A stretch of DNA of 64,000 nt from Candidatus Woesearchaeota archaeon (GCA_964608765.1 CAZSPD010000001.1:147223-211222); one strand, 5' to 3'. Positions 4,825-63,353 are shown, counted from the first letter of the stretch. A program made the numbers and translations. The notes: generated by a model from the sequence alone, not told the origin.

Positions 4825-4928
4825 ACATTCTTTAACAAACTTCTATCTAAAAACCTTCCTAAAAAAATATTTAAAGCAACTATGCCAATTATTTACATAA
4901 ATTTACACAAAAAAGAGGATTAAACAAG

Positions 4929-6272
4929 ATGGAAATTTGTACTATTGGAGGTTATGAAGAAGTCGGAAAAAATATGACTGCTGTAAAAGTCGGAGACAAT
5001 GTTGTTATCTTTGACGCTGGAATTTATCTCCCACCATTAGTGGAATTACAAGAACAAGAATCCCAAGTCCAATATACTGAAAATATGCTTAGAGCAGCAA
5101 AAGCAATACCTAATGATTTAATCTTAGATAGATTAGGATGGACAGATAAAGTAAAATTAATTATAATTGGACATGCTCATTTAGACCATGTAGGTGCTTT
5201 ACCTTATCTTGCTCATAGATACCCTAAAGCAGAAATTCTTGCAAGTCCTTTTACAATGGCTGTTTTAGAAGGAATACTCAAAGATGAGAAGATAAGTATT
5301 AGAAATAAAAGAAGAGTCGTAAAAGAAAACTCAACTTACACATTTAAGGGTAATTCTGAGTCAATTAAAATAGAATTTATTAACACAACTCACTCTACAC
5401 TTCAATGTCTTTTTGTTGCATGGCATTCAAGAGAGGGAATTTTCTTTTATGGATTAGATTTTAAATTTGATAATCATCCTATTATAGGATTACCTCCTAA
5501 TTATAAAAGATTAAAAGAATTAGGTAAATTAGGAGTAAAATGTCTTGTAGTAGATGCTTTATATTCTGATACTGACAGAAGAACTGCAAGTGAAAGAATA
5601 GCAAGGAATTTACTTGAAGACGCTCTTGGAAATATTTATGATAAGAAATCTGCAATTTTTATAACAACTTTCTCTTCCCATATTGCACGACTTAAGAGTA
5701 TAGTAGATTTTGGACAAAAAACAAGGAGAAAAATAGTGTTTATTGGAAGAAGCTTAAATAAATATGTTGAAGCTGCAATTAAAGTTAACCAGTGTCCATT
5801 TAAAAATAAAATAAATACAATAAAATACCGTGGACAAATTAATTCCTTTTTGAAAAAAGTAGAAAGAAATAGAGGAGACTATCTTATTGTGTGTACTGGA
5901 CATCAAGGAGAAAAAGGTTCTATTTTAGATAGAATAATCTATAATGAAACTCCGTTCAAATTTAGAACAGGAGATAATTTAATATTTTCTTCAAGTATAA
6001 TACCTGCTTCTGTAAATATTAATGCCAGAGAAAAAATGGATAACAAGTTAAAGAAGCAAGGAGTAAGATTACAGACAGATGTTCATGTCTCAGGGCACGG
6101 GGGTAAAGAAGATTTAAGAGATTTATTAGAGATGCTAAAACCGAAACATTTAATTCCTGCACATGGTTCTTTAAAACAGGAGGCCCCCCTAATAGATTTA
6201 GCAAGTGAGATGGGATACAAATTTCAAGAAAACTCTCATTTATCTTCAAATGGAAAGGTGATAAAAATATAA
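4929..6272 (+). CDS. rnj: Archaeal RNase J (metallo-beta-lactamase/beta-CASP ribonuclease)
   Basis: 447 aa. GHAHLDHVGALPYL MBL motif, VHVSGHGGKEDL and IPAHG beta-CASP C-terminal motifs. No KH domains, unlike the aCPSF1 at 14437. Confidence 0.8.
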   Translation: MEICTIGGYEEVGKNMTAVKVGDNVVIFDAGIYLPPLVELQEQESQVQYTENMLRAAKAIPNDLILDRLGWTDKVKLIIIGHAHLDHVGALPYLAHRYPKAEILASPFTMAVLEGILKDEKISIRNKRRVVKENSTYTFKGNSESIKIEFINTTHSTLQCLFVAWHSREGIFFYGLDFKFDNHPIIGLPPNYKRLKELGKLGVKCLVVDALYSDTDRRTASERIARNLLEDALGNIYDKKSAIFITTFSSHIARLKSIVDFGQKTRRKIVFIGRSLNKYVEAAIKVNQCPFKNKINTIKYRGQINSFLKKVERNRGDYLIVCTGHQGEKGSILDRIIYNETPFKFRTGDNLIFSSSIIPASVNINAREKMDNKLKKQGVRLQTDVHVSGHGGKEDLRDLLEMLKPKHLIPAHGSLKQEAPLIDLASEMGYKFQENSHLSSNGKVIKI

Positions 6273-8718: not shown

Positions 8719-10199
8719 TACACTAACCTCTTTTCTATTTCTCTTTTTAATTCATCTGCAAAAAATGGTCTTCCATCATACCTTAATATTTTATTTTTAG
8801 GATTAATGAACATTCCTGTATGTTGAGTTATAATTCCTGCTAATTGTCCTGTTGGAGAATTTTCTACAAGGAGTATATTTTTCCTTAGCAGATTATCTCG
8901 TATATTTTCTGGGAAAGGCTCAAGGTATTTAATGTGAATAAACTCTACATCTAGTCCCTTAATTGCATCAAGTATTGCCCCTTTATTAGAACCCCAACTC
9001 ACAACAATATTCTTAGAATTTGGTTCTCCATAAATAAAAAACCTAGAAAATCTTTTTAGTTCTTCTTTTAATTGCTGATGTTTCTTCAACCTTTTATCTA
9101 TATTCTCTTTTATTATTTGAGCATCTTCTGTTGCACTTCCAAAACTATCTTTTTCATAACTATTATATCTTGTAAAAGGAGTAGTATTTTTTATTTTAAT
9201 TATAGAGGATTCTTCATCTAATGTGTAATTACTTTCTGCAAGGTGTTTATCTCCTAAAACTATTGAAGGTATTTTAAATTTCTGAGATAAATAAAATGCT
9301 TCATTTGTCATTTCTTGAGCTTCTTTTGGGTCTCCTGGAGCTGCAACTGTTCTTGAGAATTGTCCGTGTCCAAAATGTATTGCCATATTCAAATCTCCTT
9401 GTGAAGTATAGGTTGCTACCCCTGTTCCTGGACCAGGTCTTTGAGATAAATATACTACAATCGGTATTTCTGCTATACCTGCTAAACTTAGAGACTCAGT
9501 CATTAAATCAAATCCCCCTCCTGAAGTCCCAACCATAACATTTTTTCCCATTATTGAACTACCTAAACCTGCATTAATTACAGCAATTTCATTTTCTAGT
9601 TTTACTGTCTTAACACCTTTAATAGGGGCTAATTCACTAAGTATAGGAGTTGCAGGAGTCATAGGATATGCATAATAAATATCTATATTTGAATTAAGTG
9701 CACCGTTTGTTATTCCAGTATTTCCATTGATAAGATAATTGCTTCTTTTATAATTTCGAATTTTACATAAGTTATTTGTTTCTTCACTATATCCTTTTTT
9801 TGCATTTGCAAGATTTTCACTGAATTTCTTACTCAATTTTTTAAGTCCTTCTTCAAGAAGTTTAAATTCTAAACATAAAAGTTTGAATATTCTTCCTGCA
9901 TAATACATATTCTCTTTAGAATTTTTAAGAATTATTCCCCCAGCATTTAAATTTTTTTTATGAATTTCTTCTGTTTTACTGTCTAAGCACACTAAAATAT
10001 CTATTTTTGAATCATTACTAAAAATAGGTTCATCTGAAAAAGTAAGAATATTAAAATTGTGTCCTCCTCTTATTAGGGATTGATAATCTCTAGAATAAAA
10101 AACATAATTTCCACTTTTTATAAGAGCATTTCCTACAATTTGAGTTAAAACATTTGGTCCTTGCCCTGCTTCACCTCCAATAAGTATATTATATCTCAT
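8718..10199 (-). CDS. 2-oxoacid:ferredoxin oxidoreductase, fused gamma/alpha subunit
   Basis: 493 aa. N-terminal gamma-like IGGEAGQGPNVLTQIVG. Alpha-like YPMTPATPILSELA and GTSGGGFDLMTESLSLAG. Confidence 0.85.
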   Translation of the reverse strand: MRYNILIGGEAGQGPNVLTQIVGNALIKSGNYVFYSRDYQSLIRGGHNFNILTFSDEPIFSNDSKIDILVCLDSKTEEIHKKNLNAGGIILKNSKENMYYAGRIFKLLCLEFKLLEEGLKKLSKKFSENLANAKKGYSEETNNLCKIRNYKRSNYLINGNTGITNGALNSNIDIYYAYPMTPATPILSELAPIKGVKTVKLENEIAVINAGLGSSIMGKNVMVGTSGGGFDLMTESLSLAGIAEIPIVVYLSQRPGPGTGVATYTSQGDLNMAIHFGHGQFSRTVAAPGDPKEAQEMTNEAFYLSQKFKIPSIVLGDKHLAESNYTLDEESSIIKIKNTTPFTRYNSYEKDSFGSATEDAQIIKENIDKRLKKHQQLKEELKRFSRFFIYGEPNSKNIVVSWGSNKGAILDAIKGLDVEFIHIKYLEPFPENIRDNLLRKNILLVENSPTGQLAGIITQHTGMFINPKNKILRYDGRPFFADELKREIEKRLV

Positions 10200-10301
10200 A
10201 TCACCCTCTTTAATGTAGTTAATTTTATATATTGGTATAGTTTTGAGCTGTTATAAACTTTTTTGTATAAAAATGATTAAAAATACTAAATTAATTTATT
10301 G

Positions 10302-10455
10302 TAAAATGGTAAGATTTGCACACTCGAGTAACCATGTTGACGAGGTAGTCGTTCAAATATTACAGGAGATAAAATGGTAAGATTTGCACACTCGAGTAAC
10401 CATGTTGACGAGGTAGTCGTTCAAATATTACAGGAGATAAAATGGTAAGATTTGC
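10302..10455 (+). repeat. Perfect 68-bp tandem duplication (2 full copies plus the genuine 5' end) of the mre11 start region
   Basis: Identical units at 10303-10370 and 10371-10438. The third copy matches for 17 nt (AAAATGGTAAGATTTGC) and then continues as mre11. ATGs lie at 10306, 10374 and 10442 (period 68). Confidence 0.95.
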
Positions 10456-11611
10456 CCACATAGCAGATGTACATCTTGGAGGATGGAAACAACAGCCAAT
10501 GCAGGATTTAAATTTTGAATCTTTTAAAGAAGCTGTAAATATTTGTATAAAGTCAAAATTGGATTTTATTTTATTTGCAGGAGATTTATTTGATTCAGCA
10601 TATCCCCCAATTGAAATACTTAAAGAAACATTTGCACAATTTAGAAGATTAAAAGATGCAGGAATACCTTGTTTTATAATTGCAGGTTCTCATGACTATT
10701 CTGTATCTGGAAAAACATTTTTAGATGTTCTTGAGAAAGCAGGATTTTGTAAAAATGTTTATAATGCAGAGGAAAAAGAAAACTCAATAATCCTTAATCC
10801 AATTGTTTATGGAAATGTTGCAATTTATGGATACCCTGGAAGAAAATCAGGTTTAGAAATAGCTGATTTAAAAAAAATAAGATTTAATGATTCTCCTGGA
10901 TTATACAAAATATTCATGTTACACACCACAATAGATAGAGTTGTTGGAACACTACCTATAGAATCAATAAATCCAGATAAACTACCTCATGCAGATTATT
11001 ATGCATTAGGACACATACACGTCTTTTATAGTGATAAGCGATTTGTTTATCCAGGACCATTATTTCCAAATAATTTTAAGGAACTTGAAGACTTAAAACA
11101 AGGATCTTTTGTAATCATAGATACAGAATCAAACTTTAATATTCAAAGAATAAAATTACCTACAAAACAAATAGAACATTTAGTGATTGAAATAAGTGAT
11201 GCACTAACAGGAACAGAGAAAATAATTTATGAGCTTAATCAAAGAGAACTTAAAGACAAAGTAATCCTGCTTAGGATATACGGGGAATTAAAAAGAGGAA
11301 AAACTTCTGATATAAAATTTTCTAAGATTGAAGAATTTATAAAAAGCAAGGAAGCATACTTTCTTTTAAGGAACACTCACGATTTAATCTCAGAGGAGAT
11401 AGAATTAGAATTTAATATTCCAGAGAAAGATTCTGAAAACATTGAAGAAGAGATAATCAAATCACATTCAGAAGAATATCCTTCTTCTTTTAATGATATA
11501 ATAAATGAATTAATGAATTCTCTTTCAATAGAGAAACAAGAAGGTGAGACAACAGAGACATTCAATAATAGGATTATTCAAGGAACTAAAAAATTCTTTA
11601 AATTACCTTAA
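10442..11611 (+). CDS. mre11: DNA double-strand break repair nuclease Mre11
   Basis: Phosphoesterase motifs FAHIADVHLG, GDLFD, AGSHD and GHIH. Followed by rad50. Confidence 0.9.
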   Translation: MVRFAHIADVHLGGWKQQPMQDLNFESFKEAVNICIKSKLDFILFAGDLFDSAYPPIEILKETFAQFRRLKDAGIPCFIIAGSHDYSVSGKTFLDVLEKAGFCKNVYNAEEKENSIILNPIVYGNVAIYGYPGRKSGLEIADLKKIRFNDSPGLYKIFMLHTTIDRVVGTLPIESINPDKLPHADYYALGHIHVFYSDKRFVYPGPLFPNNFKELEDLKQGSFVIIDTESNFNIQRIKLPTKQIEHLVIEISDALTGTEKIIYELNQRELKDKVILLRIYGELKRGKTSDIKFSKIEEFIKSKEAYFLLRNTHDLISEEIELEFNIPEKDSENIEEEIIKSHSEEYPSSFNDIINELMNSLSIEKQEGETTETFNNRIIQGTKKFFKLP

Positions 11612-11619
11612 TAAATAAA

Positions 11620-13668
11620 ATGAAGTTAAAGAGAATAATTTTAAATAATATACGAAGCTATGAAAAACAAGAGATAGTTTTTCCAGAAGGTTCAGTACTT
11701 CTTTCAGGAGATATTGGCTCAGGTAAGACCTCAGTTCTTTTAGGAATAGAATTTGCTTTATTTGGATTACAGCCTGGACAAAAAGGAACTTCAATTTTAA
11801 GGAATGGACAAGTCCAAGGGGGAGTTGAAATAGAATTTGAAATTGATGGAAAGATAATAATTCTTGAAAGAACTTTAAAAAAAACACGGGCAGTTGGACA
11901 AGATTATTGTTCAATTTCAATAGACGGAGAAAAAAAAGAAATATCTGTGACTGAATTAAAAAGCAAGGTTTTAGAACTTCTAAACTACCCTAAAGAATTT
12001 TCAAAAAAGCAAAATCTTTTGTATAAATTTACAGTGTATACTCCTCAAGAAGAGATGAAACAAATTATACTTGAAAATTCAGAAACAAGAATAAATACTC
12101 TTAGACATGTTTTTGGTATTGACAAATATAAAAAGATAATTGAAAATGCATCTGTTTTAATTTCCAAGGTAAGGGAAGAAAAAAAGATAAAAGATGCACT
12201 CTCCTCTAATCTTGAAAGCGACAAACTAAATATTGAATCTAAAGAAAAAGAACTTTCTGAAAAATCTTATAATCTAATTTCATTTGAAACTAAATTTAGA
12301 GACAAATCTGAAAAAAGAAAAAAGATTCAAGAAGAAAAAGAAGACATATTAAAAAAAATTGAAGAAAAAAGAAAATATCAGCAAGAAATAGAAAAAGTCC
12401 ACATTGCAAAAAATGTTAAAATTGACACAATCCACAACAATTCCCTATCAATCACACATCTTAAATCCCAAATCCAAGAATTAAAAAGCCTAGATTATAA
12501 TGAAAAAGAAGTTTTGGAATTAGAAAAAGAAGTTAGTGATTTAAAATCCAAGAAACACGAATTAAATGAAAAAAACATTAATATAACAGGCTTGATTCAT
12601 GCACTCAACTCTAAAAACTATGATAGTGAAAAGATTAAAGAAAAACTAAAGAACTTAGAAATATGCCCAACTTGCCTTCAAGAAGTTGATTCAGTATACA
12701 AATCAAATGTAGTTAATGAAATGGATTCTAATATTTCCTCTAATAATAATTTAATTAAAGATAATACTGAAAAAAAAGAAGCACTAAGAAACCAAATATT
12801 AAAAATTGATTATGATATTTCATTAAAAGAAAAAAGAATACAAGAAATAAGGATTTTGAAAGTAAAATTACTAGGATTAGAAGATAAACAAAGACAATTA
12901 GAAAACTTAGAAAAAACTAATACTTCTTTAGAAAAGGATTTAGAAATTTTTGACAATCAAATAGAATCCCTAAAACTAAAAGTGTTTGAACTTAATAAAT
13001 TTGATAATTTAAATCAAGAAAAGAATAAGGAACTTGAAGAAGCATTAAGAGAAGAAAAAAATGCAGAAATAAGAGTTGCAGAATTAAAAAGAGAAATAGA
13101 GGTTTTTTCAAGACAAATAAATGAACTGAAAGAGAGGGTTAAAGAGATAGAAGCAATAAAAACTCAAGCACACTATCTTTCTGATTTAGAAGAGTGGCTA
13201 TCAAAAAAATTCATTCCAATAGTTTCTACTGTTGAAAAAAATGTTTTCACTAAACTAAAAATAGAGTTTTCAAAACTTTTCTCTAAATGGTTTTCAATGC
13301 TTGTTTCAGATACATTCAATGTAAGATTAAGTGATGATTTTACTCCAATAGTTGAGCAGCAAGATTATGAAATAGATTATGCTTATCTCTCAGGAGGAGA
13401 AAGAACAGCTATTGCCCTTGCTTATAGACTCGCATTAAATCAAGTAATAAACTCTTTTTTAAGTAAAATAAAAACAAAAGACATAGTTATTTTAGATGAA
13501 CCTACAGACGGATTTTCAGATCAGCAATTAGATAAGATGAGAGAGGTTTTAGAAGAATTAAATGTTTCCCAATTAATCATTGTAAGTCACGAACAAAAAA
13601 TTGAAAGTTTTGTTGATAATGTTATAAAATTCAAAAAAGAAGGGGGAAAGAGTGTTGCTTTTGACTAG
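11620..13668 (+). CDS. rad50: DNA repair ATPase Rad50 (short coiled coil)
   Basis: Walker A GDIGSGKTS, zinc hook CPTC mid-protein, signature LSGGERTAIALA, Walker B IVILDEPT. Long K/E-rich coiled coil. Confidence 0.9.
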   Translation: MKLKRIILNNIRSYEKQEIVFPEGSVLLSGDIGSGKTSVLLGIEFALFGLQPGQKGTSILRNGQVQGGVEIEFEIDGKIIILERTLKKTRAVGQDYCSISIDGEKKEISVTELKSKVLELLNYPKEFSKKQNLLYKFTVYTPQEEMKQIILENSETRINTLRHVFGIDKYKKIIENASVLISKVREEKKIKDALSSNLESDKLNIESKEKELSEKSYNLISFETKFRDKSEKRKKIQEEKEDILKKIEEKRKYQQEIEKVHIAKNVKIDTIHNNSLSITHLKSQIQELKSLDYNEKEVLELEKEVSDLKSKKHELNEKNINITGLIHALNSKNYDSEKIKEKLKNLEICPTCLQEVDSVYKSNVVNEMDSNISSNNNLIKDNTEKKEALRNQILKIDYDISLKEKRIQEIRILKVKLLGLEDKQRQLENLEKTNTSLEKDLEIFDNQIESLKLKVFELNKFDNLNQEKNKELEEALREEKNAEIRVAELKREIEVFSRQINELKERVKEIEAIKTQAHYLSDLEEWLSKKFIPIVSTVEKNVFTKLKIEFSKLFSKWFSMLVSDTFNVRLSDDFTPIVEQQDYEIDYAYLSGGERTAIALAYRLALNQVINSFLSKIKTKDIVILDEPTDGFSDQQLDKMREVLEELNVSQLIIVSHEQKIESFVDNVIKFKKEGGKSVAFD

Positions 13669-13685
13669 TTTGTAGATATAGAAAA

Positions 13686-13727
13686 ATTTATAAAACATCA
13701 TATTTTATCTAGAATATAAATTCTAGA
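13686..13727 (+). promoter_or_regulatory. Putative psmB promoter: TATA-like box plus a perfect palindrome
   Basis: ATTTATAAAA at 13686-13695. TCTAGAAT-ATAA-ATTCTAGA palindrome at 13708-13727, about where transcription would start. ATG at 13751. Confidence 0.4.
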
Positions 13728-13750
13728 TTGATTTTATCTAAAAATCTAAA

Positions 13751-14416
13751 ATGGACGAAGAATTAAAAAAGTCAATATTAAGGACCGGAACAACTATACT
13801 GGGGATTGTTTGTAAAGAAGGAATTGTTATGGCTTCTGATAGACAATCAAGTGCAGGGACAATTGTCATGAATAAGAATTCAGAAAAAACAAAAAAGATT
13901 AATGATTATATTCTTATTTCTGGAACAGGAATGGTATCAGACATTCAAAGAGTTGCAAAACTATTGCCTGCAGAATTAAAACTAAAAGAATTGCGTTCAA
14001 AATCAAGACCTAGTGTGAAACAAGCAGCAAGTTTACTTTCAAATATATCTTATTCAGGTATAAGGCAACCTTCAATGATTCCTCAACAAGCAGGATTTTT
14101 AATTGGAGGATTTGATGAAGATGGAACAGTTGAACTTTACACTGTTGAACCTGCTGGGAGTTTTGTAAAAGTAGATGACTATGATGCTAACTTTGGCTCA
14201 GGAATGCCCTATGTTTTAGGGTTTTTAGAGAGACAATACAAAAAAGATATGTCTATTAAAGATGGAATTGAATTAGCAAAAGAAGCAATTAAGTCCTCAA
14301 CTCAAAGAGATATGGGTTCAGGATATGGAATCGATGTGTTCACAATAACAAAAGAGGGTATTAAAAAAGTAGTTGAACAACAGATTCTTCCAGAATATGT
14401 GAATGAAACAAAATAA
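13751..14416 (+). CDS. psmB: 20S proteasome beta subunit
   Basis: 221 aa. Short propeptide followed by the GTTILGIV active-site Thr region. Confidence 0.9.
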   Translation: MDEELKKSILRTGTTILGIVCKEGIVMASDRQSSAGTIVMNKNSEKTKKINDYILISGTGMVSDIQRVAKLLPAELKLKELRSKSRPSVKQAASLLSNISYSGIRQPSMIPQQAGFLIGGFDEDGTVELYTVEPAGSFVKVDDYDANFGSGMPYVLGFLERQYKKDMSIKDGIELAKEAIKSSTQRDMGSGYGIDVFTITKEGIKKVVEQQILPEYVNETK

Positions 14417-20214: not shown

Positions 20215-21492
20215 TTATTTAAATTTTAAATCACTAATATACATTTCTTTTATTATTTTACTATTTTTAATTTTCCATTTCTCTAAAAACTCTTTTAATC
20301 CAAGAGTTACTTTTTCACGAGCATAAAGTCTGTTTTCTTTTTCATATATTATTTTATGCTCTTTTATGAATTTTTTACAATTTTCTTTATCATCATTATA
20401 AGGCCCAGAGTATATTATTTCCTTCTTTTTTTCAGTAACAAAAAAATACTGTGCTACTTCCCCTTTTCCATATTCAAATCCTTTCTTGCTTATTATAAAA
20501 AACACACCTATTTCTTTACCTAAATAATTAAAGAATTTTAAGAGCTTACTACCTGCAATATCCCCTTCAGGTTTATTTGTTTTAGCTTCTATTAAGATAA
20601 ATTCTTTTCCTCTTTTAATTGAAGATTCCCTTATTTTTTCAATATCTTCTTTTTTTACTTCAAAATTTTTTATAGAAGGTTTTTTTATAAACTCAATACA
20701 AGATTTTTGAAATTTTTCAAAAGTTTCTTTACTTAATGCAGCTAAAACATTTCTTTGTTTATAAGTAGGATCAATTAAAATAACAGGAGAATTTAATTTT
20801 GAAGTATTTAAATCAATTAAAATATCTTTTTTATTTTTATACTGTTTTTCAATATCAATCAAAAGTTTATCTTTTCCCACTTTAGTCATAGCTTGAATGA
20901 ATTTTTCAAATCCCTTGTAATAATAAACAAGTAATTCTAAGGAATACCCTGAAAAACCATGAATATAAGATTCTGCACCATAGCATTTATTAGCATAGCA
21001 AAATGATTTTGCTATTTTTATATCATCTAATATTTTTTTATCTTTTATTTTTTTATTTACATATTTCACATGAAGATAAGATAAGTCAGTTATATTTTCA
21101 TGTTCTTTAGAACTATTTACTTTTTTAACAGGTATTAGTTCTATAAAGAAATTTTCATTAATATCTATTCTAAAATAATCTCTTGAGCCGTGTATAACAG
21201 AATGCTTGTATGTTCCTCCAATAAGTTTCTCAGTTAATTTAGAAATTTCATTGTTTTTGTATTTTTTATCATACCTCACAAACACATCAACATCATATTT
21301 GTCTTTTTTTATTACTGTTCCTTTTGCAAAACTCCCTCCAATAAATATTTCAGCATCTATATTTGATTTTTTTATATTTTTTTTAAGTGTCTCGCAAAAT
21401 AAATTAACTTCTTTTTTTATTTCTTTTAACTCTTTTTCAGAAGGGTTGCATTTATCGAGGACTTCCTTAAGAATCTTTTCGTTTTTTCTCAT
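20215..21492 (-). CDS. cca: Archaeal class I CCA-adding enzyme (tRNA nucleotidyltransferase)
   Basis: 425 aa. IGGSFAKGTVIKKDKYDVDVFV pol-beta NTase motif and archaeal CCA-like architecture. Confidence 0.85.
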   Translation of the reverse strand: MRKNEKILKEVLDKCNPSEKELKEIKKEVNLFCETLKKNIKKSNIDAEIFIGGSFAKGTVIKKDKYDVDVFVRYDKKYKNNEISKLTEKLIGGTYKHSVIHGSRDYFRIDINENFFIELIPVKKVNSSKEHENITDLSYLHVKYVNKKIKDKKILDDIKIAKSFCYANKCYGAESYIHGFSGYSLELLVYYYKGFEKFIQAMTKVGKDKLLIDIEKQYKNKKDILIDLNTSKLNSPVILIDPTYKQRNVLAALSKETFEKFQKSCIEFIKKPSIKNFEVKKEDIEKIRESSIKRGKEFILIEAKTNKPEGDIAGSKLLKFFNYLGKEIGVFFIISKKGFEYGKGEVAQYFFVTEKKKEIIYSGPYNDDKENCKKFIKEHKIIYEKENRLYAREKVTLGLKEFLEKWKIKNSKIIKEMYISDLKFK

Positions 21493-21892
21493 AAGGTTTT
21501 TGTATCTCCTTTAACTCTTTTACACTTTTATTGAGAGTAGAAGCTAAATCAATTATATATTTTCCTTCTTCAAGTTTGTAGATTAGGGGTCTTTTTTTAT
21601 TAAATACATTAACAATGTCTATTTCAAATTTACCTTCACCCACAACTCTAACAGACTCTAAATCAAGTATCACAGGTGTTTCTTCATCTGTAATTCCAAC
21701 TATTTCCCTTATATCCTTTTCAATAACAGATTTTTCTTTTTCAGGTATTTCAACTATCTTATTTTTTATTTCTTCAAGTTGTTCTTGCTTTATATAAAAG
21801 AAAAACCTTCCACCACAATTACTACATCCATCTAATAATTCTTTACTTCCCAAAGGTATTATCTTAGAACATTTAACACACTGATGTGGCAT
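21467..21892 (-). CDS. Zn-ribbon protein, DUF2072/OapC-like
   Basis: MPHQCVKCSKIIPLGSKELLDGCSNCGGRFFFYIK resembles the N-terminus I recall for the archaeal Zn-ribbon-containing protein family that accompanies an Era-like GTPase and DUF2073. TATA-like box about 30 nt upstream. Confidence 0.6.
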   Translation of the reverse strand: MPHQCVKCSKIIPLGSKELLDGCSNCGGRFFFYIKQEQLEEIKNKIVEIPEKEKSVIEKDIREIVGITDEETPVILDLESVRVVGEGKFEIDIVNVFNKKRPLIYKLEEGKYIIDLASTLNKSVKELKEIQKPYEKKRKDS

Positions 21893-21945
21893 TTTAAATT
21901 ACATTTCATAAAATCAATGCAAGTTTATAAAATTAATGAATTCAA

Positions 21946-22605
21946 CTAAGAAACTCTTTTAATCTCTCCAAGAATCTCTTTTAACACACCTTTTAATCCA
22001 TTTTTGTTAGAGAACTTATTTTCTAATGAGGATAATGTGTAAAATACACAATAAAATAAGAATTTATTATAATCCTCAAATTTTTTTAGTCTATCTAATA
22101 TCTCTGAGGATAATTTTCTGTTAAAATAAATAGTTTCCATATAAAAATATGCAAAATCTCTTTCAGGGTAAGAATATCCAGAATGTTCAAAATCGATTAA
22201 CCCCAATTTATCTTTTTCTATAAATATATTCTGAGGCCTAAAGTCTCCATGAACTAATAACCCCTCGTTTCCTTTTACACTGTATAATATAGGAGGAGGT
22301 ATTTCTTTTAAATTATTCTTAATATATTCTATTTTAGGATATTCATTTAGCATCCCTTTTTTTAAAGGAAGTTTTTTAAAAAGTCTTTCAACATCATAAA
22401 TATTCCATTTTTTTAATTCTTTTTCAAGAAAAGTTCCATTTACTTTTTCTATTTTTAATACTAAATTATCTTTATTTTCAGATAAAATTTCTGGAACAAT
22501 AAAATTCTCTTTAAAGTAATCCCTATATTTTAATTCATTTTCATATTTTTTAATGTCCGAGAATCTCTTTTCTATGTGTGAATCATATATTTTTACTTTT
22601 TTCAT
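21946..22605 (-). CDS. APH/choline-kinase-fold phosphotransferase
   Basis: 219 aa. Catalytic loop LVHGDFRPQNIFI and LIDFEHSGY (HGDxxxxN / DFE). Start overlaps the rSAM gene end by 23 nt. Confidence 0.7.
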   Translation of the reverse strand: MKKVKIYDSHIEKRFSDIKKYENELKYRDYFKENFIVPEILSENKDNLVLKIEKVNGTFLEKELKKWNIYDVERLFKKLPLKKGMLNEYPKIEYIKNNLKEIPPPILYSVKGNEGLLVHGDFRPQNIFIEKDKLGLIDFEHSGYSYPERDFAYFYMETIYFNRKLSSEILDRLKKFEDYNKFLFYCVFYTLSSLENKFSNKNGLKGVLKEILGEIKRVS

Positions 22606-24499
22606 TTTTTAAATCAAAGTAATCTTTAAAAATATCAACTAACCACCCATTATCTAATTCTTCAAAATAATCCTGATTAGCATAGAAAGATATCGCTCCT
22701 CTTATTCCTAAAGAATATATTGGCTTAATATCAGAATAATAACTATCTCCAATATAAACTAATTCCTCAGGTTTTATATTTATTTCATTAAAAAATTCTT
22801 TAAAATACTCTAAAGAGGGTTTTTTAAATTTCTTAGATTCAAAGATATCCTCAAAAAGATTTAAATTTATTTTTTTTTCTTTTAATTCAGTAATTATACT
22901 CTCTTTTTTATTTCTAGATAAGATATATACCGGTAGATTATACTTATTTTTAATTTCATTTAATTGATTTATTAAGGGTTTATTTATTTTTGAGTTTTCT
23001 TTCCATTTTTTTAAATATAGATATATCATATCATTTACTTTTTCAGGTTTATTTAACTCCTCTGAGATTTTATTAAATATCTCCCTTATATCATAAAAAT
23101 CTTGTTTTTCTATCTCTTCCATATACCCGTATTTTTTAGCTACAAAATTAATTGCTTCATAAGTAGGTTCACGAGAGATTATTGTTCCATCATAATCTAT
23201 TGCTATTGCTTTTGGAGGGCTCAAATATAAATCTTTTCCAAATTCTTCAATAAGTAAACTCAAAAAAGGATACATTCTACTATCTGGTGAATCTAAACTA
23301 CCTTCAGTTAATTCAGAATAATAAGGGCAACTATTTCCGCATATTAGAATAAATGGGCATTTTTTATTTACACAGTACTCTTTATTTAGGGGGGATAAGA
23401 GGTTCCATTTCTTAAAAGTTTCTCCTCCTTTAAAATCCAGATTATCTATATTATAATCAAAATATTTTTTTGTACCTGAAAATCCATGGCAAGGACCCAC
23501 TAATCCCGTGGGGTGTACTACTATTTGATTTCCACACGCTCCGCAGTCTTTAAGATAAGGTTTTTCATTAATTATATATTTTAATCTTCTTAAGATTCTA
23601 TCCTCATAGATTTTTTTTCTCCTTAATATTCTATAAGAATTATAAAGTTGAAAAGCACAATATTCTGAATCTACAAATAATTTGTTTCCCTTAATATTTT
23701 CCAAAGGTAAGTTAAATCCAATTGATTTCACTTTTTTGAACTTTTTTGAAATCCATTTAGATATTGAAGGTAAGTAATCTATATTGTGGCTATTGATTGT
23801 AATAGAAAAAGAAACAATTACTCCATCAGAGAGATATTTTTCTATATTCCCTATAACTTCTTTAGATGTGCCTAAATTACTATGGTTTATTCTAGTTTTA
23901 TCATTAATTTTATTAAACCCATCAATAGAAACAGACACTATTACATTATTATCCTTAAAAACATTAGACAGTTCTTTATCATAGATAGATCCATTAGTGT
24001 TTATTCCAATATGTGTATCTTTGGATAATTCCCTTATTTTAGTTATACACTTAATTAAAACATCTTTATTCAATAAAGGTTCTCCACCATAGAATATTAT
24101 CCTTTTTTCATTAGATTTGGAATTATTAAAAAAATAATCAATTGCTTTATTTGCATTTTCCCAAGTTAAAACATTTCTTTCTTTACTTTTATAATTTCCT
24201 TCAATAAAGCAATAAGGGCATTTAAAATTACAATTATCTGTTAAAAGAAGGTACATTAAACTCAATTCTTGTTCTGTATTATTAATTATTTTCTTATAGT
24301 GCTCTATAAATTTATTTTCATAATCATTCTCAACAAGTATTCTATTTTCAGATAAATAAGGACTTTTATTTATTCCTTTTTTTATATCTTCAAGATTAGA
24401 ATTACTAAATAAAAAAAACCTGTGTTTATAGGGGGAATAAACTATTGAGTAATCAAGATATTTTCTAATATATAAAAAAGGATTTAATATCTTTTTCAT
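22583..24499 (-). CDS. Radical SAM/SPASM peptide-maturase-like enzyme fused to a C-terminal HAD-superfamily domain
   Basis: 638 aa. CNFKCPYC (Cx3Cx2C) after a leader of about 90 aa. SPASM-type CGNQIVVHPTGLVGPC and CVNKKCPFILICGNSC. HAD motifs AIDYDGT, ILSRN, KKPS and GDSYYSD. Confidence 0.85.
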   Translation of the reverse strand: MKKILNPFLYIRKYLDYSIVYSPYKHRFFLFSNSNLEDIKKGINKSPYLSENRILVENDYENKFIEHYKKIINNTEQELSLMYLLLTDNCNFKCPYCFIEGNYKSKERNVLTWENANKAIDYFFNNSKSNEKRIIFYGGEPLLNKDVLIKCITKIRELSKDTHIGINTNGSIYDKELSNVFKDNNVIVSVSIDGFNKINDKTRINHSNLGTSKEVIGNIEKYLSDGVIVSFSITINSHNIDYLPSISKWISKKFKKVKSIGFNLPLENIKGNKLFVDSEYCAFQLYNSYRILRRKKIYEDRILRRLKYIINEKPYLKDCGACGNQIVVHPTGLVGPCHGFSGTKKYFDYNIDNLDFKGGETFKKWNLLSPLNKEYCVNKKCPFILICGNSCPYYSELTEGSLDSPDSRMYPFLSLLIEEFGKDLYLSPPKAIAIDYDGTIISREPTYEAINFVAKKYGYMEEIEKQDFYDIREIFNKISEELNKPEKVNDMIYLYLKKWKENSKINKPLINQLNEIKNKYNLPVYILSRNKKESIITELKEKKINLNLFEDIFESKKFKKPSLEYFKEFFNEINIKPEELVYIGDSYYSDIKPIYSLGIRGAISFYANQDYFEELDNGWLVDIFKDYFDLKNEKSKNI

Positions 24500-24514
24500 C
24501 TTTAATAAATAATC

Positions 24515-24721
24515 TTAAATCCAATCTTCTATAGGAACTGTGCTTACTCTATCGTCAATAGTGCAACTTCCACAGTTACATATTCCACAACTTCCACAAG
24601 AACAATCGCTTCCACCCCCACAAAGGGAGCACATTGCAACAATACTATCTTTATGTATTAAGTTGATATCCCCATAAAGTTCTATTTTTTTAACTGCGTT
24701 ATAATTTGGATTATACTCCAT
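24515..24721 (-). CDS. Cys-rich 68-aa peptide, candidate RiPP precursor
   Basis: MEYNPNYNAVKKIELYGDINLIHKDSIVAM-CSLCGGGSDCSCGSCGICNCGSC-TIDDRVSTVPIEDWI. Stop is 15 nt before the rSAM start. Has its own TATA-like box. Confidence 0.7.
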   Translation of the reverse strand: MEYNPNYNAVKKIELYGDINLIHKDSIVAMCSLCGGGSDCSCGSCGICNCGSCTIDDRVSTVPIEDWI

Positions 24722-24743
24722 AGGAAACTCACATATTCAAACT

Positions 24744-24753
24744 ATTTAAATAT
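24744..24753 (-). promoter_or_regulatory. TATA-like box upstream of the Cys-rich peptide gene
   Basis: TATTTAAATA lies 23 nt upstream of the ATG at 24721, in the 69-nt gap after the DUF2073-like gene. Confidence 0.35.
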
Positions 24754-24790
24754 TATTATAAAATTAATGATGAGTTTAATCTAGTGTATT

Positions 24791-25198
24791 TTACTTATTT
24801 AATAATAACTCAATCTTTTTAGGATTTCTTTTAATTTCCTTAACTATTGTTGCAGGTCCTATTATTGTTATTGCACCTAAATCTCCTTTACTTAGTGCTT
24901 TTATTAATCCGCTTCTCATCTTATCTAATATACTCATCTCATTACTTCCACTAATTACAGCGAGTTCTATGCCTCTAAATCCTTTAATATGCCCTATCAT
25001 AGCCATTGTATCTCCTATTAATCTTGCTTCTTCTTCTGATTTAAGTCTTCCCTGAATAAATAAAATATTATTTCCAAGAACAATATTAAGGATTTTTTTT
25101 ATTCTTTCATGACTATTTAAATCCCTTATTTCAGAATAAGGAATAAACTGCATTGAAAATCCTTTTATTTTCCCTAATTTTTTATCCCTCTTTGCCAT
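24791..25198 (-). CDS. DUF2073/OapB-like conserved archaeal protein
   Basis: 135 aa. ERIKKILNIVLGNNILFIQGRLKSEEEARLIGDTMAMI...FRGIELAV matches my recollection of the DUF2073 pattern. Lies directly downstream of the GTPase. Confidence 0.55.
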   Translation of the reverse strand: MAKRDKKLGKIKGFSMQFIPYSEIRDLNSHERIKKILNIVLGNNILFIQGRLKSEEEARLIGDTMAMIGHIKGFRGIELAVISGSNEMSILDKMRSGLIKALSKGDLGAITIIGPATIVKEIKRNPKKIELLLNK

Positions 25199-25219
25199 TT
25201 TATTATATTCTTTTTATTT

Positions 25220-25861
25220 TTAAATGCTTTTTGCTAATTTAAATATTGATTCGTAAAATTCTTCAAAGTTTTCACCACTCTTAGCACTTACACCCACAAC
25301 ATCATATTCTGGAAAAGCTGCTTCTATTTTTTTTAAATCTGCTTTCTTTAAATCTACTTTATTTCCAACAATAAGAACAGGTATTTTTCTTGCAACTAAA
25401 TTACCTACTATTGTTATATTTACTTGATTATATGGGTTTTCTGATGAGTCTAAAACTATTACAACAACATCCATATCATCAAGCCACTTTATGCTTTCAA
25501 TAACACCTTGTGTTGCTTCTTTAGCTCTTTCTTTTGCTTCTTTTTTCTTCATATTATATTTTAAGAAATCTTCATAATCTATTTTTGTAGCTATTCCTGG
25601 AGTGTCTATCATTTTAAAAGTTAAAGATTTACCTTTATACTTTATTTCTACTTTTTCTTTAAATTGAATATTTCTAGTTTCATGAGGGACTTTACTTACT
25701 GTTCCAATTTCTTGTCCTGTAAAATCTTTACAAATCCTATTTGCTAAACTTGTTTTACCTGCATTTGGAGGGCCATAAAATCCTAGTTTGATTTCCCTTC
25801 TATTTTTAAATAAATTATTAAATATTTTTTTAAAAAAATTCTTGAATACTTTTATCGCCAT
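25220..25861 (-). CDS. Era-like small GTPase (OapA-like)
   Basis: G1 GPPNAGKT, G3 DTPG, G4 NKVD, G5 SAK. N-terminal amphipathic/basic segment. Confidence 0.8.
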   Translation of the reverse strand: MAIKVFKNFFKKIFNNLFKNRREIKLGFYGPPNAGKTSLANRICKDFTGQEIGTVSKVPHETRNIQFKEKVEIKYKGKSLTFKMIDTPGIATKIDYEDFLKYNMKKKEAKERAKEATQGVIESIKWLDDMDVVVIVLDSSENPYNQVNITIVGNLVARKIPVLIVGNKVDLKKADLKKIEAAFPEYDVVGVSAKSGENFEEFYESIFKLAKSI

Positions 25862-27427: not shown

Positions 27428-30400
27428 TTATTTTCTTTTTTTAACTTTTTTAGAAACCACTACTTTTTTATCTTTTCTACTTAAAGTATAAGCAATGTAT
27501 ATTAACCCAATTAATGCAACAGCAAATGCAACGTGATTTACACTAAAGAATGGAAGTTCTACTGTAGCAGGACAGTAAATTAAATTAGAGCGCTCAGTAA
27601 TGCATTCATTGTATTTATCAATAGAACCGAGTCTCCAAACACCAGTATTATCTAAGAAAAATGCTGTATCAGGTAACCCTAGTGAAGAACGTGTATCTTC
27701 AGTGAATTGATTTAAAGGATCCCACCCCATTACACCTCTAATTCCAACTGTTATTTGAGAAACACCTTCTGAACAACTATCATCTGTTGTAGGTTCATAA
27801 ACACACCATCCTGGATTAGGATAATTAATTGTTCCTCCACCATTATCATCTCCTCTACAATTTTCTAAATTATAAGTACACTGATATTGATGCCCTTGAG
27901 GATAACAACTTACTGTTCCTGATGTGAATTCATCAAAGTGACTACATTCACTATCACTTAATTGTAATTCATTACTATCACATGTTTCTCCAAGTTCAAC
28001 TATTCCATTCCCACACACTGAACCAGGAGATATAAAATGGCAGTTAGTATCGCAATTTCCTTCTCCAGGAGGTTCACACTCTTCGTTTGATTCATATTCA
28101 ACTACTCCATTCCCACAGTGATCTAATGGACCTTGACAATTACTAAAATTATAAGTACATTCAAGAAGATGTCCTTGAGGATAACAATTTACTGTTCCTG
28201 ATGTGAAATCATCAAAGTGACTACATTCACTATCACTTAATTGTAATTCATTACCATCACAAACTTCTCCACGTTCAAGTATTCCATTTCCACATACAGG
28301 TGTTAAACTAGGAGGAACAATATAATTACAATCATCACCACAATTTCCTTCTCCAGGAGGTTCACACTCTTCCCCAGCATCTACAACACCATTTCCACAG
28401 TTAGATACTGGAGGATTTCCATCACAATAATCTATCTTAGGTATTGTGGTAGCCCTACATATATTACTAGCACTATTCCAAGTACATCCACACTCTGGAG
28501 CAATCATACATTTCATATTTGAGTCATAATAAGGTTCTTTTTCACAAGTAGGTTCATTTTCAGCTACTCTGTAGTATAAATCTCCATCATGATTACATTG
28601 ATATTCATCTGTGTAATCTGCACAACGTACTATACCTGGCCATTTTTTTTCAACTTCAATTGAGTCTGATTTTTCAGATATATCTAATCCTACAACATTT
28701 GCAATAAAGTAGTATTTAGCAGGTTCTCCATTACCTTCATATTCTGCTCTCCAAATTCCCATATTATTTGAACTACTGTAGGAGTTTATATTTTCTAGAT
28801 ATCCAGGGTTTTCTATTCTACTATCTCTTCCTCCCCCATTGTCTTTCCAGATTTCAAAGTTTATTCTTCTTCCATTACAATGTGGAGTAGCCTCTACAAA
28901 CATATTTGCATTATTTCCTTCTAATATTCTCAAAGTACTCCAATAAACATCAAGGATTTCACAAGTAACAGGACAAGGACCACAATCGCTTTCACAATTA
29001 TTACAATTTTCAGGACCATTACAAACACCATCCCCACACCATCCTCCTTGAACAGTAACTGAAGTACAAGATGCTGAACAATAATTACAAGTATCTCCAT
29101 ATAGAGCAGTACATGGAACACCATTTAAGGCAGCTCCATTATCACACTGTTCTCCAGGTTCTAAAATCCCATTTCCACAACTTGCTAATCTTGATACTCT
29201 TAATAATTGAGGGTCATTTACACCTGAATTTGAACTTGAATTTGTAACACCTGAAACAGTTGATCTAAAATAATATTCTGGAGGGTCAGTTTCAGGAACC
29301 CCTTCACTTTGCCACTCAGCATCCCACATTCCAGCAGCAGAGTTTCCACTTAGCGGGAATATTATTGGAACAGGATTTATTATCACATCATCATCTGCTC
29401 CAATTGTGTCTTTTTCTTTTATTTCAAAACTAATAGTTTTTCCTCCGCAATTTGTTCCAGCAATATTTAATAGTACTGGTGTTCCCTCAACTATTGGGCT
29501 TCCAACAGGAGTTGAATAATTCCAAGATAAAGAAGTTAAAACACAAGGAGGAATACATCCAGAAGTATTATAAGTACATCCACTAGTACATGTTACAGCA
29601 CCCAAAGTATATCCAGCACCCATTAAACTTGCACATGTTGCACCTCCTAAAGCAGTTCCATCACACTGCTCACCACTTTCTCTTACTCCATTTCCACATG
29701 TAGCTGTACAATCATTATCATTAACAGCATTACATCCTTGAGGACAACACCCATCATTGTTGATTCCACAACTTAAAGCAGGATAAGTACATGAGCCACT
29801 TACACACCTCCCAGGATTACATTGTCCAGGACTATTAGTGCAATGACTATCTCTAGTACATATTGTACAATCATTATCATCCCCTATATCACACCCTAAA
29901 GGACAACATCCATCATTGTTGATTCCACAACTTAAAGCAGGATTTGAACAAGTATTAGTTGCTAAATTACAAGTATCTGGACCAGTACAAACCTTATTAT
30001 CATTACATTGGGAATTAGAGGTACAGCAATTATTTATAAGAATATTGGCACATGTACCACTATTACAAATATCAGTTGTACACGGATTACCATCATCACA
30101 TGTTCCGCAATTTAAAGTACCTCCACATCCATCTGAAACTGTTCCACAATTTCTACCTAATGCTGAACATGTTGTTGGAACACAAACACAAGCTCCACCC
30201 GAGCAAGTTTGTCCTGACAAACAAGCTGTTGGAGTTCCCCAATTATAACATCCATTACTTCCTGAAACACATGTTTGAACATTATTTCCTGAACATCGTG
30301 TTGCACCTGGAGTACACTGATTATTACAACACTGACTAGTATCATATCCACACCCACTTACTCCAGGAGGATTACATCTTAAATTACCTCCATTAAAACC

Positions 30401-31012
30401 TAAACCAACACAAGTCTGCCCTCTTAATTGAGTACTTGTACAAGGAGACCCTGATGCTCCACAGTCACAATTCTCTCCATCTTCTACTATACTATTCCCA
30501 CAAACAGCAACAGAACTATCATTACAACATATTTTTGTTCCATAAGTACTACTAAATTGAGCTAAATGTGCATTTGTATTTGCACTTAAAGAAAGAACCT
30601 GAATAGGATAATTAGAAGGACAAGAAGTAGTTGTTACAGAAGTACACATAAATTTTCCAAAACACACATTTGTGGAGTAACCTGGTTCATTTTGGGTTTG
30701 AGCATGAGCATTTGTTGTTGCAGATAATTTTAAAATCTTATTAGTTGGATTAGAGGCAGGAGAACAAGTATGCATAGAAGCATTATCAGCAGCAGAGTAA
30801 TAAGTCATACCCACACAACATAAATAATAAGTGTATGTTCCTTGATTCCATAATGCTCCGTGAGCATTTGTTGAAGAAGATAATCTCATAACTCTATTAG
30901 CTTCAGGACAAGAAGTTGTAATTGAACAAGTTGTTGCTGAAATAAAACTTGATAATAATATTGTAAATGTAATTACTACAACAAAAAATATTAAACCTCT
31001 TTTGCTACTCAT
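27428..31012 (-). CDS. Giant Cys-rich repeat surface protein (1194 aa), C-terminally membrane anchored
   Basis: Signal peptide. Three LSxxTNAH repeats. Seven CGNGxxExGExC(D/E) repeats (Myxococcus cysteine-rich-repeat-like). Duplicated ALSCGINNDGCCP modules. C-terminal TM plus a Lys-rich tail. Confidence 0.8.
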   Translation of the reverse strand: MSSKRGLIFFVVVITFTILLSSFISATTCSITTSCPEANRVMRLSSSTNAHGALWNQGTYTYYLCCVGMTYYSAADNASMHTCSPASNPTNKILKLSATTNAHAQTQNEPGYSTNVCFGKFMCTSVTTTSCPSNYPIQVLSLSANTNAHLAQFSSTYGTKICCNDSSVAVCGNSIVEDGENCDCGASGSPCTSTQLRGQTCVGLGFNGGNLRCNPPGVSGCGYDTSQCCNNQCTPGATRCSGNNVQTCVSGSNGCYNWGTPTACLSGQTCSGGACVCVPTTCSALGRNCGTVSDGCGGTLNCGTCDDGNPCTTDICNSGTCANILINNCCTSNSQCNDNKVCTGPDTCNLATNTCSNPALSCGINNDGCCPLGCDIGDDNDCTICTRDSHCTNSPGQCNPGRCVSGSCTYPALSCGINNDGCCPQGCNAVNDNDCTATCGNGVRESGEQCDGTALGGATCASLMGAGYTLGAVTCTSGCTYNTSGCIPPCVLTSLSWNYSTPVGSPIVEGTPVLLNIAGTNCGGKTISFEIKEKDTIGADDDVIINPVPIIFPLSGNSAAGMWDAEWQSEGVPETDPPEYYFRSTVSGVTNSSSNSGVNDPQLLRVSRLASCGNGILEPGEQCDNGAALNGVPCTALYGDTCNYCSASCTSVTVQGGWCGDGVCNGPENCNNCESDCGPCPVTCEILDVYWSTLRILEGNNANMFVEATPHCNGRRINFEIWKDNGGGRDSRIENPGYLENINSYSSSNNMGIWRAEYEGNGEPAKYYFIANVVGLDISEKSDSIEVEKKWPGIVRCADYTDEYQCNHDGDLYYRVAENEPTCEKEPYYDSNMKCMIAPECGCTWNSASNICRATTIPKIDYCDGNPPVSNCGNGVVDAGEECEPPGEGNCGDDCNYIVPPSLTPVCGNGILERGEVCDGNELQLSDSECSHFDDFTSGTVNCYPQGHLLECTYNFSNCQGPLDHCGNGVVEYESNEECEPPGEGNCDTNCHFISPGSVCGNGIVELGETCDSNELQLSDSECSHFDEFTSGTVSCYPQGHQYQCTYNLENCRGDDNGGGTINYPNPGWCVYEPTTDDSCSEGVSQITVGIRGVMGWDPLNQFTEDTRSSLGLPDTAFFLDNTGVWRLGSIDKYNECITERSNLIYCPATVELPFFSVNHVAFAVALIGLIYIAYTLSRKDKKVVVSKKVKKRK

Positions 31013-63194: not shown

Positions 63195-63353
63195 TCCCTC
63201 CACCAAGATTCGAACTTGGGATCTTCCGGGTACTGCTTTTTATTTACAGATTCCTTCAGGAATGGCTTATCGTGCTTCATCCTAATCCAAAATGGAATGT
63301 CTGCACTAGACATAATCTACAGCCAGACGCTCTAACCACTGAGCTATGGAGGG
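63195..63353 (-). tRNA. tRNA-Tyr(GUA) with an intron of about 86 nt in the anticodon loop
   Basis: Hand-folded. C1:G72 acceptor CCCTCCA/TGGAGGG (archaeal Tyr identity pair). D arm GCTC-AGTGGTTA-GAGC. Anticodon stem TCTGG/CCGGA with CTGTAG. T arm CCAAG-TTCGAAT-CTTGG. Discriminator A followed by TTTT. Confidence 0.8.

Follow-up and report, generated by a model that had tools for sequence, protein, structure and literature searches.

A kinase and a HAD phosphatase-fold domain accompany a radical SAM/SPASM peptide maturase in a gene cassette of DPANN archaea

What might a kinase and a phosphatase-fold domain do beside an enzyme that is expected to cross-link a small peptide by radical chemistry? 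This question is raised by a cassette of three genes, about 2.8 kb long, within a stretch of 64,000 nucleotides from a Candidatus Woesearchaeota archaeon (GCA_964608765.1, CAZSPD010000001.1:147223-211222), hereafter called the window. The cassette encodes a Cys-rich peptide, a 638-aa fusion of a radical S-adenosylmethionine (rSAM) maturase of the SPASM type with a haloacid dehalogenase (HAD) domain, and a 219-aa kinase (Table 1). We conclude that it is a real, uncharacterised rSAM/SPASM system for peptides that are ribosomally synthesized and then modified post-translationally (RiPPs), with a previously undescribed kinase and HAD accessory pair. To our knowledge, very few archaeal RiPPs have been characterised, and none is known from DPANN archaea.

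The fused maturase and its partner enzymes

A first-pass annotation, made from the sequence alone, had called this enzyme set unusual. All rSAM, SPASM, HAD and kinase motifs that it quoted were found in the translations of the two enzyme open reading frames (ORFs), and the ORF coordinates agree with the 23-nt overlap that it gave between the start of the kinase ORF and the end of the fusion ORF. With Pfam gathering scores and NCBIfam curated cut-offs as thresholds for family membership, the profile check that it had proposed gave matches above the gathering scores for Radical_SAM, HAD_2 and APH.

The maturase part carries CNFKCPYC at aa 90-97, and its C90, C94 and C97 (CxxxCxxC) are unchanged across 19 orthologues. 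With 66.9 bits against Pfam Radical_SAM (PF04055, aa 86-246, cut-off 29.5) the protein belongs to the superfamily. Two Cys clusters, CGNQIVVHPTGLVGPC at aa 322-337 and CVNKKCPFILICGNSC at aa 376-391, give the seven-Cys SPASM pattern (C322-x9-G332-x4-C337, then C376-x4-C381-x5-C387-x3-C391). Six of the SPASM cysteines are unchanged in all 19 orthologues and C322 in 17 of them, while the x4 spacing between C376 and C381 is x2 in most orthologues. The SPASM assignment holds by its Cys pattern and by superposition of the predicted structure on the SPASM enzymes CteB and anSME (Foldseek), but not by Pfam: PF13186 did not match the window protein, and a few distant relatives carry it. NCBIfam SPASM-maturase models align out to aa ~395-404.

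For the N-terminal segment, a leader-binding role as in RiPP recognition elements (RREs) had been suggested. The full-length AlphaFold2 (AF2) model (pLDDT 87.6, pTM 0.87) starts with four strands (aa 3-5, 10-13, 17-22 and 27-32) followed by helices (aa 33-40, 47-51 and 60-74); an RRE, with which we compared it, is an N-terminal, leader-binding winged helix of three strands and three helices. The Foldseek alignment to CteB spans 435-468 columns on a target of 418-440 residues and thus takes in the N-terminal domain of CteB. On these grounds the predicted beta/alpha domain may resemble a leader-binding RRE; no NCBIfam model matched the N-terminal 85 aa of the maturase.

Among NCBIfam models the best matches were those for the FibroRumin rSAM maturase (E = 2e-52) and PapB (2.9e-43), followed by CcpM, the nif11-type maturase and the SCIFF maturase. 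The window protein falls far below the cut-off of every curated maturase family and is a member of none. Its best solved relative is CteB, both by sequence (3.2e-18) and by structure (2.5e-18), with ChlB, anSME, TigE and SuiB next by structure. With CteB, PapB and the FibroRumin rSAM as the nearest relatives of the maturase, leader-guided radical cross-linking of the Cys-rich core is to be expected by homology, most plausibly in the form of thioethers as in CteB and PapB. The rSAM enzyme is no orphan type and stands close to the thioether maturases FibroRumin, PapB and CteB. A role in anti-phage defence was considered and rejected, as the PADLOC match was only to a generic viperin-type rSAM and the cassette was found on no viral contig.

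The four HAD motifs (AIDYDGT, ILSRN, KKPS and GDSYYSD) all lie in the C-terminal part of the fusion, with D435-x-D437-x-T as motif I, S528 as motif II, K560 as motif III and G584-D585…D590 as motif IV. D435, D437, K560, G584, D585 and D590 are invariant across the 19 orthologues, motif I ends in T or V, and motif II is S or T throughout; that is, the catalytic residues of the complete HAD set are kept. Pfam HAD_2 matched aa 435-598 with 45.2 bits (cut-off 23.8), and the helices at aa 446-520, between motifs I and II, form a four-helix C1 cap in the AF2 model. The features of HAD-IA proteins (DxDx[TV], S/T, K and GDxxxD together with a C1 cap) are thus all found, and NCBIfam assigned the domain only as generic HAD-IA, with no equivalog-level family reached. 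The pTM of 0.87 suggests that in the model the domain packs stably on the maturase.

The HAD domain begins near nt 23212, inside the junction zone (23150-23250) that had been singled out as the place where an assembly or frameshift error might have created the fusion. A search of 5.8 billion proteins revealed about 20 rSAM and HAD fusion proteins of 610-640 aa, with 38-71% identity, in assemblies from NCBI, JGI, ENA and Logan; overall, uninterrupted fusion ORFs of 590-640 aa were seen in about 20 assemblies independent of one another. When 1.84 billion representative proteins were searched exhaustively with HMMER, full-length fusions made up only six clusters at 50% identity, besides fragments, and related stand-alone maturases numbered more than 1000 at E < 1e-30. 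The fusion is a rare but genuine gene. In two Nanoarchaeota-type contigs (L103 and L108), peptide, rSAM, HAD and kinase follow one another as four separate, overlapping genes (79/69, 440/437, 206/209 and 245/244 aa, respectively). Since these loci encode the same set unfused, the fusion arose from adjacent operon genes; it is conserved, but secondary. In both stand-alone HADs (L103 5299-5919; L108 3486-4115) motif IV reads G-N-S-x-x-x-D, the first metal-binding Asp being replaced by Asn.

The kinase, with the motifs HGDFRPQN and IDFE, scored 40.9 bits against Pfam APH (PF01636, aminoglycoside phosphotransferase; cut-off 23.2) and also matched Pfam Choline_kinase. The earlier annotation had allowed for a loss of catalytic residues on alignment. 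None was seen: K13, E24, H119-G-D121, N126 and D138-F-E140 are invariant, which gives the N-lobe Lys-Glu pair, the Brenner motif HxDxxxxN and the Mg-binding Asp of APH/choline-kinase-like (ELK) enzymes. The AF2 model (pLDDT 93) has a minimal protein-kinase-like fold, and 5-methylthioribose (MTR) kinase was its top Foldseek match; other matches were APH(2''), the choline kinase LicA, Bud32 and the phosphotransferases for corramycin and capreomycin.

This kinase belongs to the cassette. In 16 of 16 fusion loci whose sequence continues downstream, it directly follows the maturase gene, and mostly overlaps it. No more than 11 proteins came up in a profile search with the kinase, ten of them of 194-234 aa and the weakest (E 7.6e-4) of 355 aa, and those members that could be placed sit on maturase-bearing contigs (215097, 102975, 7006, 4868 and 6263 bp). 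Pairwise distances of rSAM, HAD and kinase correlate across 14 loci (r = 0.92-0.96, Mantel p = 5e-4), and the three are shown to be inherited together as one unit. Hidden Markov models (HMMs) built from the kinase, HAD and rSAM alignments were run on six-frame ORFs of every fetched locus. At the start of L097 (3-311), about 2.2 kb upstream of the cassette, the kinase HMM matched a further kinase fragment with E 4e-25, perhaps what is left in this locus of a second cassette in tandem, namely its end.

The precursor peptide and the spread of the cassette

The RiPP character that had been proposed for the cassette is supported by its small gene. An ORF of 48-79 aa lies directly 5' of every cassette that has upstream sequence, with the exception of locus L091. 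These Cys-rich peptides share an L-x-G leader and the core S-C-G-x-C-x-x-C-x-C, and most end in an aromatic residue. Positions G17, C40, S41, C42, G43, C45, C48 and C50 are invariant in the alignment, and S41, within the core motif, is its sole invariant hydroxyl residue. When 108 loci were scanned by regular expression, the core motif had a single occurrence in each of 19 kinase/HAD loci and none in about 85 other rSAM/SPASM loci. A precursor profile search found only 19 such peptides, all without a name, and an NCBIfam scan of the window precursor gave no family at E ≤ 0.01.

Metagenome-assembled genomes (MAGs) with the labels Woesearchaeota, Micrarchaeia and Nanoarchaeota are the source of the named relatives of the cassette genes. 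In all contexts examined the genes run in the order peptide, rSAM(-HAD), kinase, and the flanking genes all differ: a ribonucleotide reductase and a DDE transposase in L001; ribosomal protein S2 and a Cas12a CRISPR locus in L003; a HIT protein and an aldehyde ferredoxin oxidoreductase in L005; a methyltransferase and an OB-fold SSB-like protein in L006, with Cdc6 about 3.7 kb further upstream; a tRNA synthetase in L103; and a tRNA-intron endonuclease and eIF-1A in L108. Judged by these neighbourhoods, the cassette moves among genomic settings that are unrelated to one another. The transposase of L001 is a fragment (4792-5253) about 500 nt upstream of the precursor gene, which fits cassette movement. 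In L003, a DPANN contig, the Cas12a (Cpf1)-type set (Cas2, Cas1, Cas4 and Cpf1; 8961-13917) directly adjoins the cassette.

No lyase or cyclase gene was found in the window, by Pfam and NCBIfam scans, or in roughly 18 contexts, in agreement with the first-pass annotation. Likewise, neither the cassette nor its flanks hold an exporter, a signal peptide or a protease.

The related archaeal loci have either both HAD and kinase or neither. In one sister form the rSAM is C-terminally fused to a GNAT acetyltransferase, without a kinase (L024 3794-5572; L099 831-2468; P0229, P0180, P0173 and P0220); in another it is followed by an overlapping, Pfam-negative protein of 229-249 aa (L105 4859-5548; L106 4507-5217; L107 1904-2653); in a third the maturase stands alone (L104). 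All three have CxCxC-type precursors, for example …SSCACVCAGPSATCSCSCTCSCR in the GNAT-fused clade. The Pfam-negative protein has an HExxH motif (HELSH) in L107 and EExxH-like motifs in L105 and L106, and may be a leader peptidase, to judge from these motifs. A Peptidase_S51 gene lies near the rSAM cluster in both L105 and L107, and L105 also has a His_Phos_1 phosphatase. Because the sister clades swap HAD and kinase for a GNAT domain or an HExxH protein, the phospho pair is an exchangeable accessory module and not part of the core cross-linking machinery. Two gut bacterial loci, from a Clostridia MAG (L020, 3746-7415) and a Lachnospiraceae MAG (L032, 2091-6044), combine an rSAM, a second rSAM and an APH/CotS-like kinase of 276-330 aa without HAD, and rSAM-kinase pairing is therefore not confined to archaea. 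The L020 rSAM is a true FibroRumin member (448 bits, cut-off 400) with the kinase gene after it, and that of L032 is PapB-like.

In the window, which has a G+C content of about 28% and archaeal housekeeping genes (FttA/aCPSF1, TrmB and a presenilin-type SPP), the three-gene cassette splits an apparent oap operon between oapB and oapC. Together with a GTPase gene (25220-25861, minus strand), these two look like an origin-associated oapABC-type operon (21467-25861, minus strand), and the gene of an archaeal CCA-adding enzyme comes after oapC. A TATA-like, AT-rich stretch 5' of the precursor gene is a possible archaeal promoter. Elsewhere in the window, a tRNA match at 63195-63353 (minus strand) covers 159 nt, so that an intron in the gene is probable, which fits an archaeal host. 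Taken together with the lineages of the named relatives, the base composition and these genes make it very probable that the host is a DPANN archaeon. A 1194-aa Cys-rich, Pfam-negative protein with a signal peptide (27428-31012, minus strand) has three N-terminal L-S-x-x-T-N-A-H repeats, and the same triple repeat is found in a 279-aa protein of L105 (5590-6429) that adjoins the related rSAM peptide cluster. This may be a chance co-occurrence, or both may be DPANN surface proteins.

Table 1. Features of the cassette and its immediate flanks, in window coordinates.
Feature	Position	Strand	Basis
Precursor peptide gene (68 aa)	24515-24721	-	ORF call; L-x-G leader (ELYGDI), Cys-rich core, C-terminal aromatic tail (…EDWI)
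Core signature S-C-G-S-C-G-I-C-N-C within the precursor	24572-24601	-	Six-frame regular-expression scan, single occurrence in the window
rSAM/SPASM-HAD fusion gene (638 aa)	22583-24499	-	ORF call, Pfam, NCBIfam, homologues, AF2
Maturase N-terminal ~75 aa, predicted RRE/winged helix-turn-helix-like leader-binding domain	24275-24499	-	AF2 secondary structure, Foldseek
Radical SAM cluster motif C-N-F-K-C-P-Y-C (C90, C94, C97)	24209-24232	-	Alignment, Pfam
SPASM-type auxiliary-cluster region (C319, C322, C337, C376, C381, C387, C391)	23327-23545	-	Alignment, NCBIfam, structure match
HAD-IA phosphatase-fold domain (aa 430-638)	22583-23212	-	Pfam HAD_2 and Hydrolase, alignment, AF2
Minimal APH/choline-kinase-like kinase (219 aa)	21946-22605	-	Pfam APH and Choline_kinase, AF2, Foldseek
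AT-rich intergenic region with TTTATAATAA / TTTAAATA boxes, possible archaeal promoter	24722-24790	-	Read from the sequence, inference only
oapB (origin-associated protein B), upstream flank outside the cassette, marks the insertion site	24791-25198	-	Pfam PF09846, 1.1e-14
oapC (origin-associated protein C), downstream flank outside the cassette	21467-21892	-	Pfam PF09845, 2.4e-21

Possible roles of the kinase and HAD pair

We tentatively propose, as a possibility that falls short of being probable, that this is a self-contained, horizontally mobile DPANN RiPP cassette in which kinase and HAD run a phosphorylation-dephosphorylation cycle on the peptide. The gene content, the fused and unfused forms, the conservation of catalytic residues, the strict co-occurrence, the co-divergence and the fold relations are all observed. 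The cross-link chemistry, the action of kinase and HAD on the peptide, the choice of the Ser for phosphorylation and the sequence of the steps are inferred. The 68-aa precursor would be recognised via its L-x-G leader by the RRE-like N-terminal domain of a CteB/PapB/FibroRumin-type maturase, which would then cross-link the Cys-rich core intramolecularly, most probably by thioethers derived from Cys. The cassette-specific APH-like kinase and the HAD-IA phosphatase would work as an obligate pair: the kinase would phosphorylate the invariant Ser of S-C-G-x-C-x-x-C-x-C, the phosphoserine would be a handle or gate for the rSAM step, and the HAD tethered to the maturase would afterwards strip the phosphate. 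The confinement of the invariant-Ser core motif to kinase/HAD-linked loci (19 versus 0 of about 85) supports such a phospho-cycle. The constant gene order, the kinase linkage, the unfused operons, the invariant catalytic residues, the co-divergence, the nearest relatives of the maturase and the packing of the HAD domain in the model also speak for the proposal.

Several points weigh against it. C1-capped HADs, such as this one with its four-helix cap, usually take small-molecule substrates, and the kinase finds its best sequence and structure matches among enzymes that phosphorylate small molecules (choline kinase, MTR kinase and APH). If their steps were not ordered, a kinase and a phosphatase that share one site would run a futile cycle. 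Similar CxCxC peptides are processed in sister clades without kinase or HAD, and since these kinase-less clades cross-link, phosphorylation is not needed for the core reaction. Their precursors also have Ser/Thr between cysteines, for which reason the precursor Ser was not accepted as proof of phosphorylation. Finally, in the fusion and kinase locus L091 (2000-2700) no Cys-rich precursor could be recognised over the roughly 600 nt upstream; its precursor may lie elsewhere or have been lost.

The affinities of kinase and HAD might mean that both act on a small molecule and that their link to the maturase is metabolic, the candidates being a co-substrate that ends up on the peptide, a derivative of an rSAM by-product such as 5-deoxyribose, or an ethanolamine/choline-type alcohol. 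The kinase resembles choline kinases (Pfam 4e-08, together with PDB matches) and MTR kinase, the HAD is a capped HAD-IA whose relatives show weak PHOSPHO1-type Put_Phosphatase matches, and HAD phosphatases are reported to take part in cyanobacterial 5-deoxyadenosine salvage (PMC8102628). We nevertheless regard a small-molecule role as unlikely: kinase and phosphatase on one alcohol would form a futile cycle, none of the contexts has a nucleosidase, phosphorylase, cytidylyltransferase or other transferase alongside the pair, thousands of other rSAM maturases do without such a pair, and the pair co-varies with a specific peptide core motif. Salvage of the by-product 5-deoxyadenosine by the two enzymes was considered unlikely too, being futile on one substrate and lacking its partner enzymes. 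It is also hard to credit that the kinase holds a mature toxic peptide inactive in the producer, in the manner of peptide-antibiotic kinases, until dephosphorylation re-activates it. Kinase/phosphatase pro-toxin pairs do occur in natural-product pathways, for example those of calyculin and streptomycin, and the fold matches of the kinase include the corramycin and capreomycin phosphotransferases. But a phosphatase fused to a cytoplasmic Fe-S enzyme would reverse the protection in the same compartment, and the missing exporter, signal peptide and protease also speak against this reading.

A rather improbable alternative keeps the peptide as substrate and gives the phosphate another part, that of a leaving group, a scheme that the first-pass annotation had raised as elimination followed by crosslinking: the kinase would activate Ser/Thr, the phosphate would be lost, either by beta-elimination to dehydroalanine or from an rSAM C-alpha radical (radical-polar crossover), and a neighbouring Cys would add, which would give lanthionine-like thioethers without a lyase or cyclase, while the HAD would merely edit mis-phosphorylated or unreacted sites. 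The invariant core Ser is indeed flanked by Cys, APH-family kinases activate Ser/Thr in class V lanthipeptides and thioamitides, a weak LxmK match was obtained (0.0031), and no lyase or cyclase was seen in the roughly 18 contexts. However, the cassette holds no known lyase fold, a strictly conserved and catalytically intact phosphatase is hard to explain as an editor, the LxmK score of 16.6 bits is far under the cut-off of 315, and related clades mature their peptides without a kinase. The HAD itself was rejected as the missing phospho-lyase, since no precedent for it is known in chemistry and its Asp+2 signature marks it as a phosphatase; we know of no HAD enzyme that acts as a phospho-lyase. 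The more specific idea that phosphoserine takes part in the radical chemistry, with C-alpha hydrogen abstraction, departure of the beta-phosphate, capture by a cluster-bound Cys thiolate and lanthionine-type links formed with neither lyase nor cyclase, is in our judgement a long shot. Least credible by far, at a probability close to nil, is that the fusion is mis-assembled or frameshifted, or that the enzyme is an anSME-like protein maturase beside an incidental small ORF. anSME is among the structural and sequence relatives, and the earlier annotation had named a consistent anSME-type linkage of homologues as a way to overturn the RiPP reading. The anSME model (TIGR03942) gave only 68.4 bits against a cut-off of 349, no sulfatase gene lies in the flanks, and conservation of the small ORF extends to a motif specific to the family, so sulfatase maturation was rejected. 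The artefact is ruled out by the full-length orthologues, which come from about 20 assemblies independent of one another and fall into 6 clusters at 50% identity, and by the unfused operons, which show the route to the fusion. The comparative data already contradict both versions.

DPANN archaea are tiny symbionts with very small genomes, and a cassette that is kept and exchanged across lineages of such archaea probably has a real role, which could be host interaction, competition, or metal or redox handling. The system could reveal phosphate-gated or phosphate-leaving-group radical cross-linking. Were phosphoserine indeed a participant in the radical chemistry, the cassette would encode the first rSAM RiPP pathway to depend on phosphorylation and would define a RiPP class that is new and native to DPANN archaea. 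Natural controls are at hand in the fused and unfused variants and the kinase-less sister clades, and the compact system is directly testable.

Relation to known systems

A full-text literature search, which included an archaeal-RiPP survey paper, found no description of the cassette and no RiPP class that combines a kinase, a HAD and an rSAM enzyme, in agreement with the first-pass annotation. The name FibroRumin was not mentioned in the texts searched either. The FibroRumin rSAM maturase (TIGR04136), whose product is uncharacterised, is the best HMM match of the window protein, which with 178.6 bits against a cut-off of 400 lies outside that family. Bacterial loci of the FibroRumin type differ in having no HAD, the longer kinase noted above and other candidate precursors.

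The freyrasin system makes Cys-Asp beta-thioethers at C-x3-D motifs. Its ranthipeptide maturase PapB (NF047865) is the second-best NCBIfam match, with 148.3 bits where 340 are required for membership. The cores described here hold several C-x3-[D/N] spacings, for example CGICN and CTIDD, but the D/N position is Ser in some cassette precursors, and the PapB system has neither kinase nor phosphatase. PapB is reported to join Cys to Asp or Glu (PMC9413430). In ranthipeptides as a chemical class, the thioether runs from the Cys sulfur to a non-alpha carbon of the acceptor residue; by homology of its maturase, the cassette product is a candidate for this class.

CteB, the SCIFF maturase (PDB 5WGG and 5WHY), shares the rSAM barrel, the SPASM domain and a putative N-terminal leader-binding-type domain (E 2.5e-18; template modelling score 0.68-0.73 on the target), a small Cys-rich precursor encoded alongside, and a cluster without exporter or protease. 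The two proteins are only 18% identical, the precursor families appear to differ, and CteB has no HAD domain and no kinase partner; against the SCIFF model (TIGR03974) the window protein scored 95.9 bits, well under the cut-off of 425.

In their RiPP clusters, LxmK and TvaC are APH-fold kinases for Ser/Thr residues in the core peptide, and the cassette kinase has their HGD…N and D-F-E catalytic residues and their fold. Both a HopA1/LxmX-type lyase and a cyclase, absent here, are required in the class V lanthipeptide and thioamitide pathways, which work without phosphatase and without rSAM. With the low LxmK score and no lyase or cyclase, membership in the class V lanthipeptides (LxmK with the lyase LxmX and the cyclase LxmY) or in the thioamitides was rejected.

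In validamycin biosynthesis, ValC and VldH are a dedicated kinase and HAD phosphatase, and the phosphate is carried through the intermediates and taken off last. Their substrates are sugars and cyclitols, not peptides, and the sequence relation is at the superfamily level only. Even so, a kinase that acts early and a HAD phosphatase that acts late embody the same phosphate-handle logic that we propose for the archaeal cassette.

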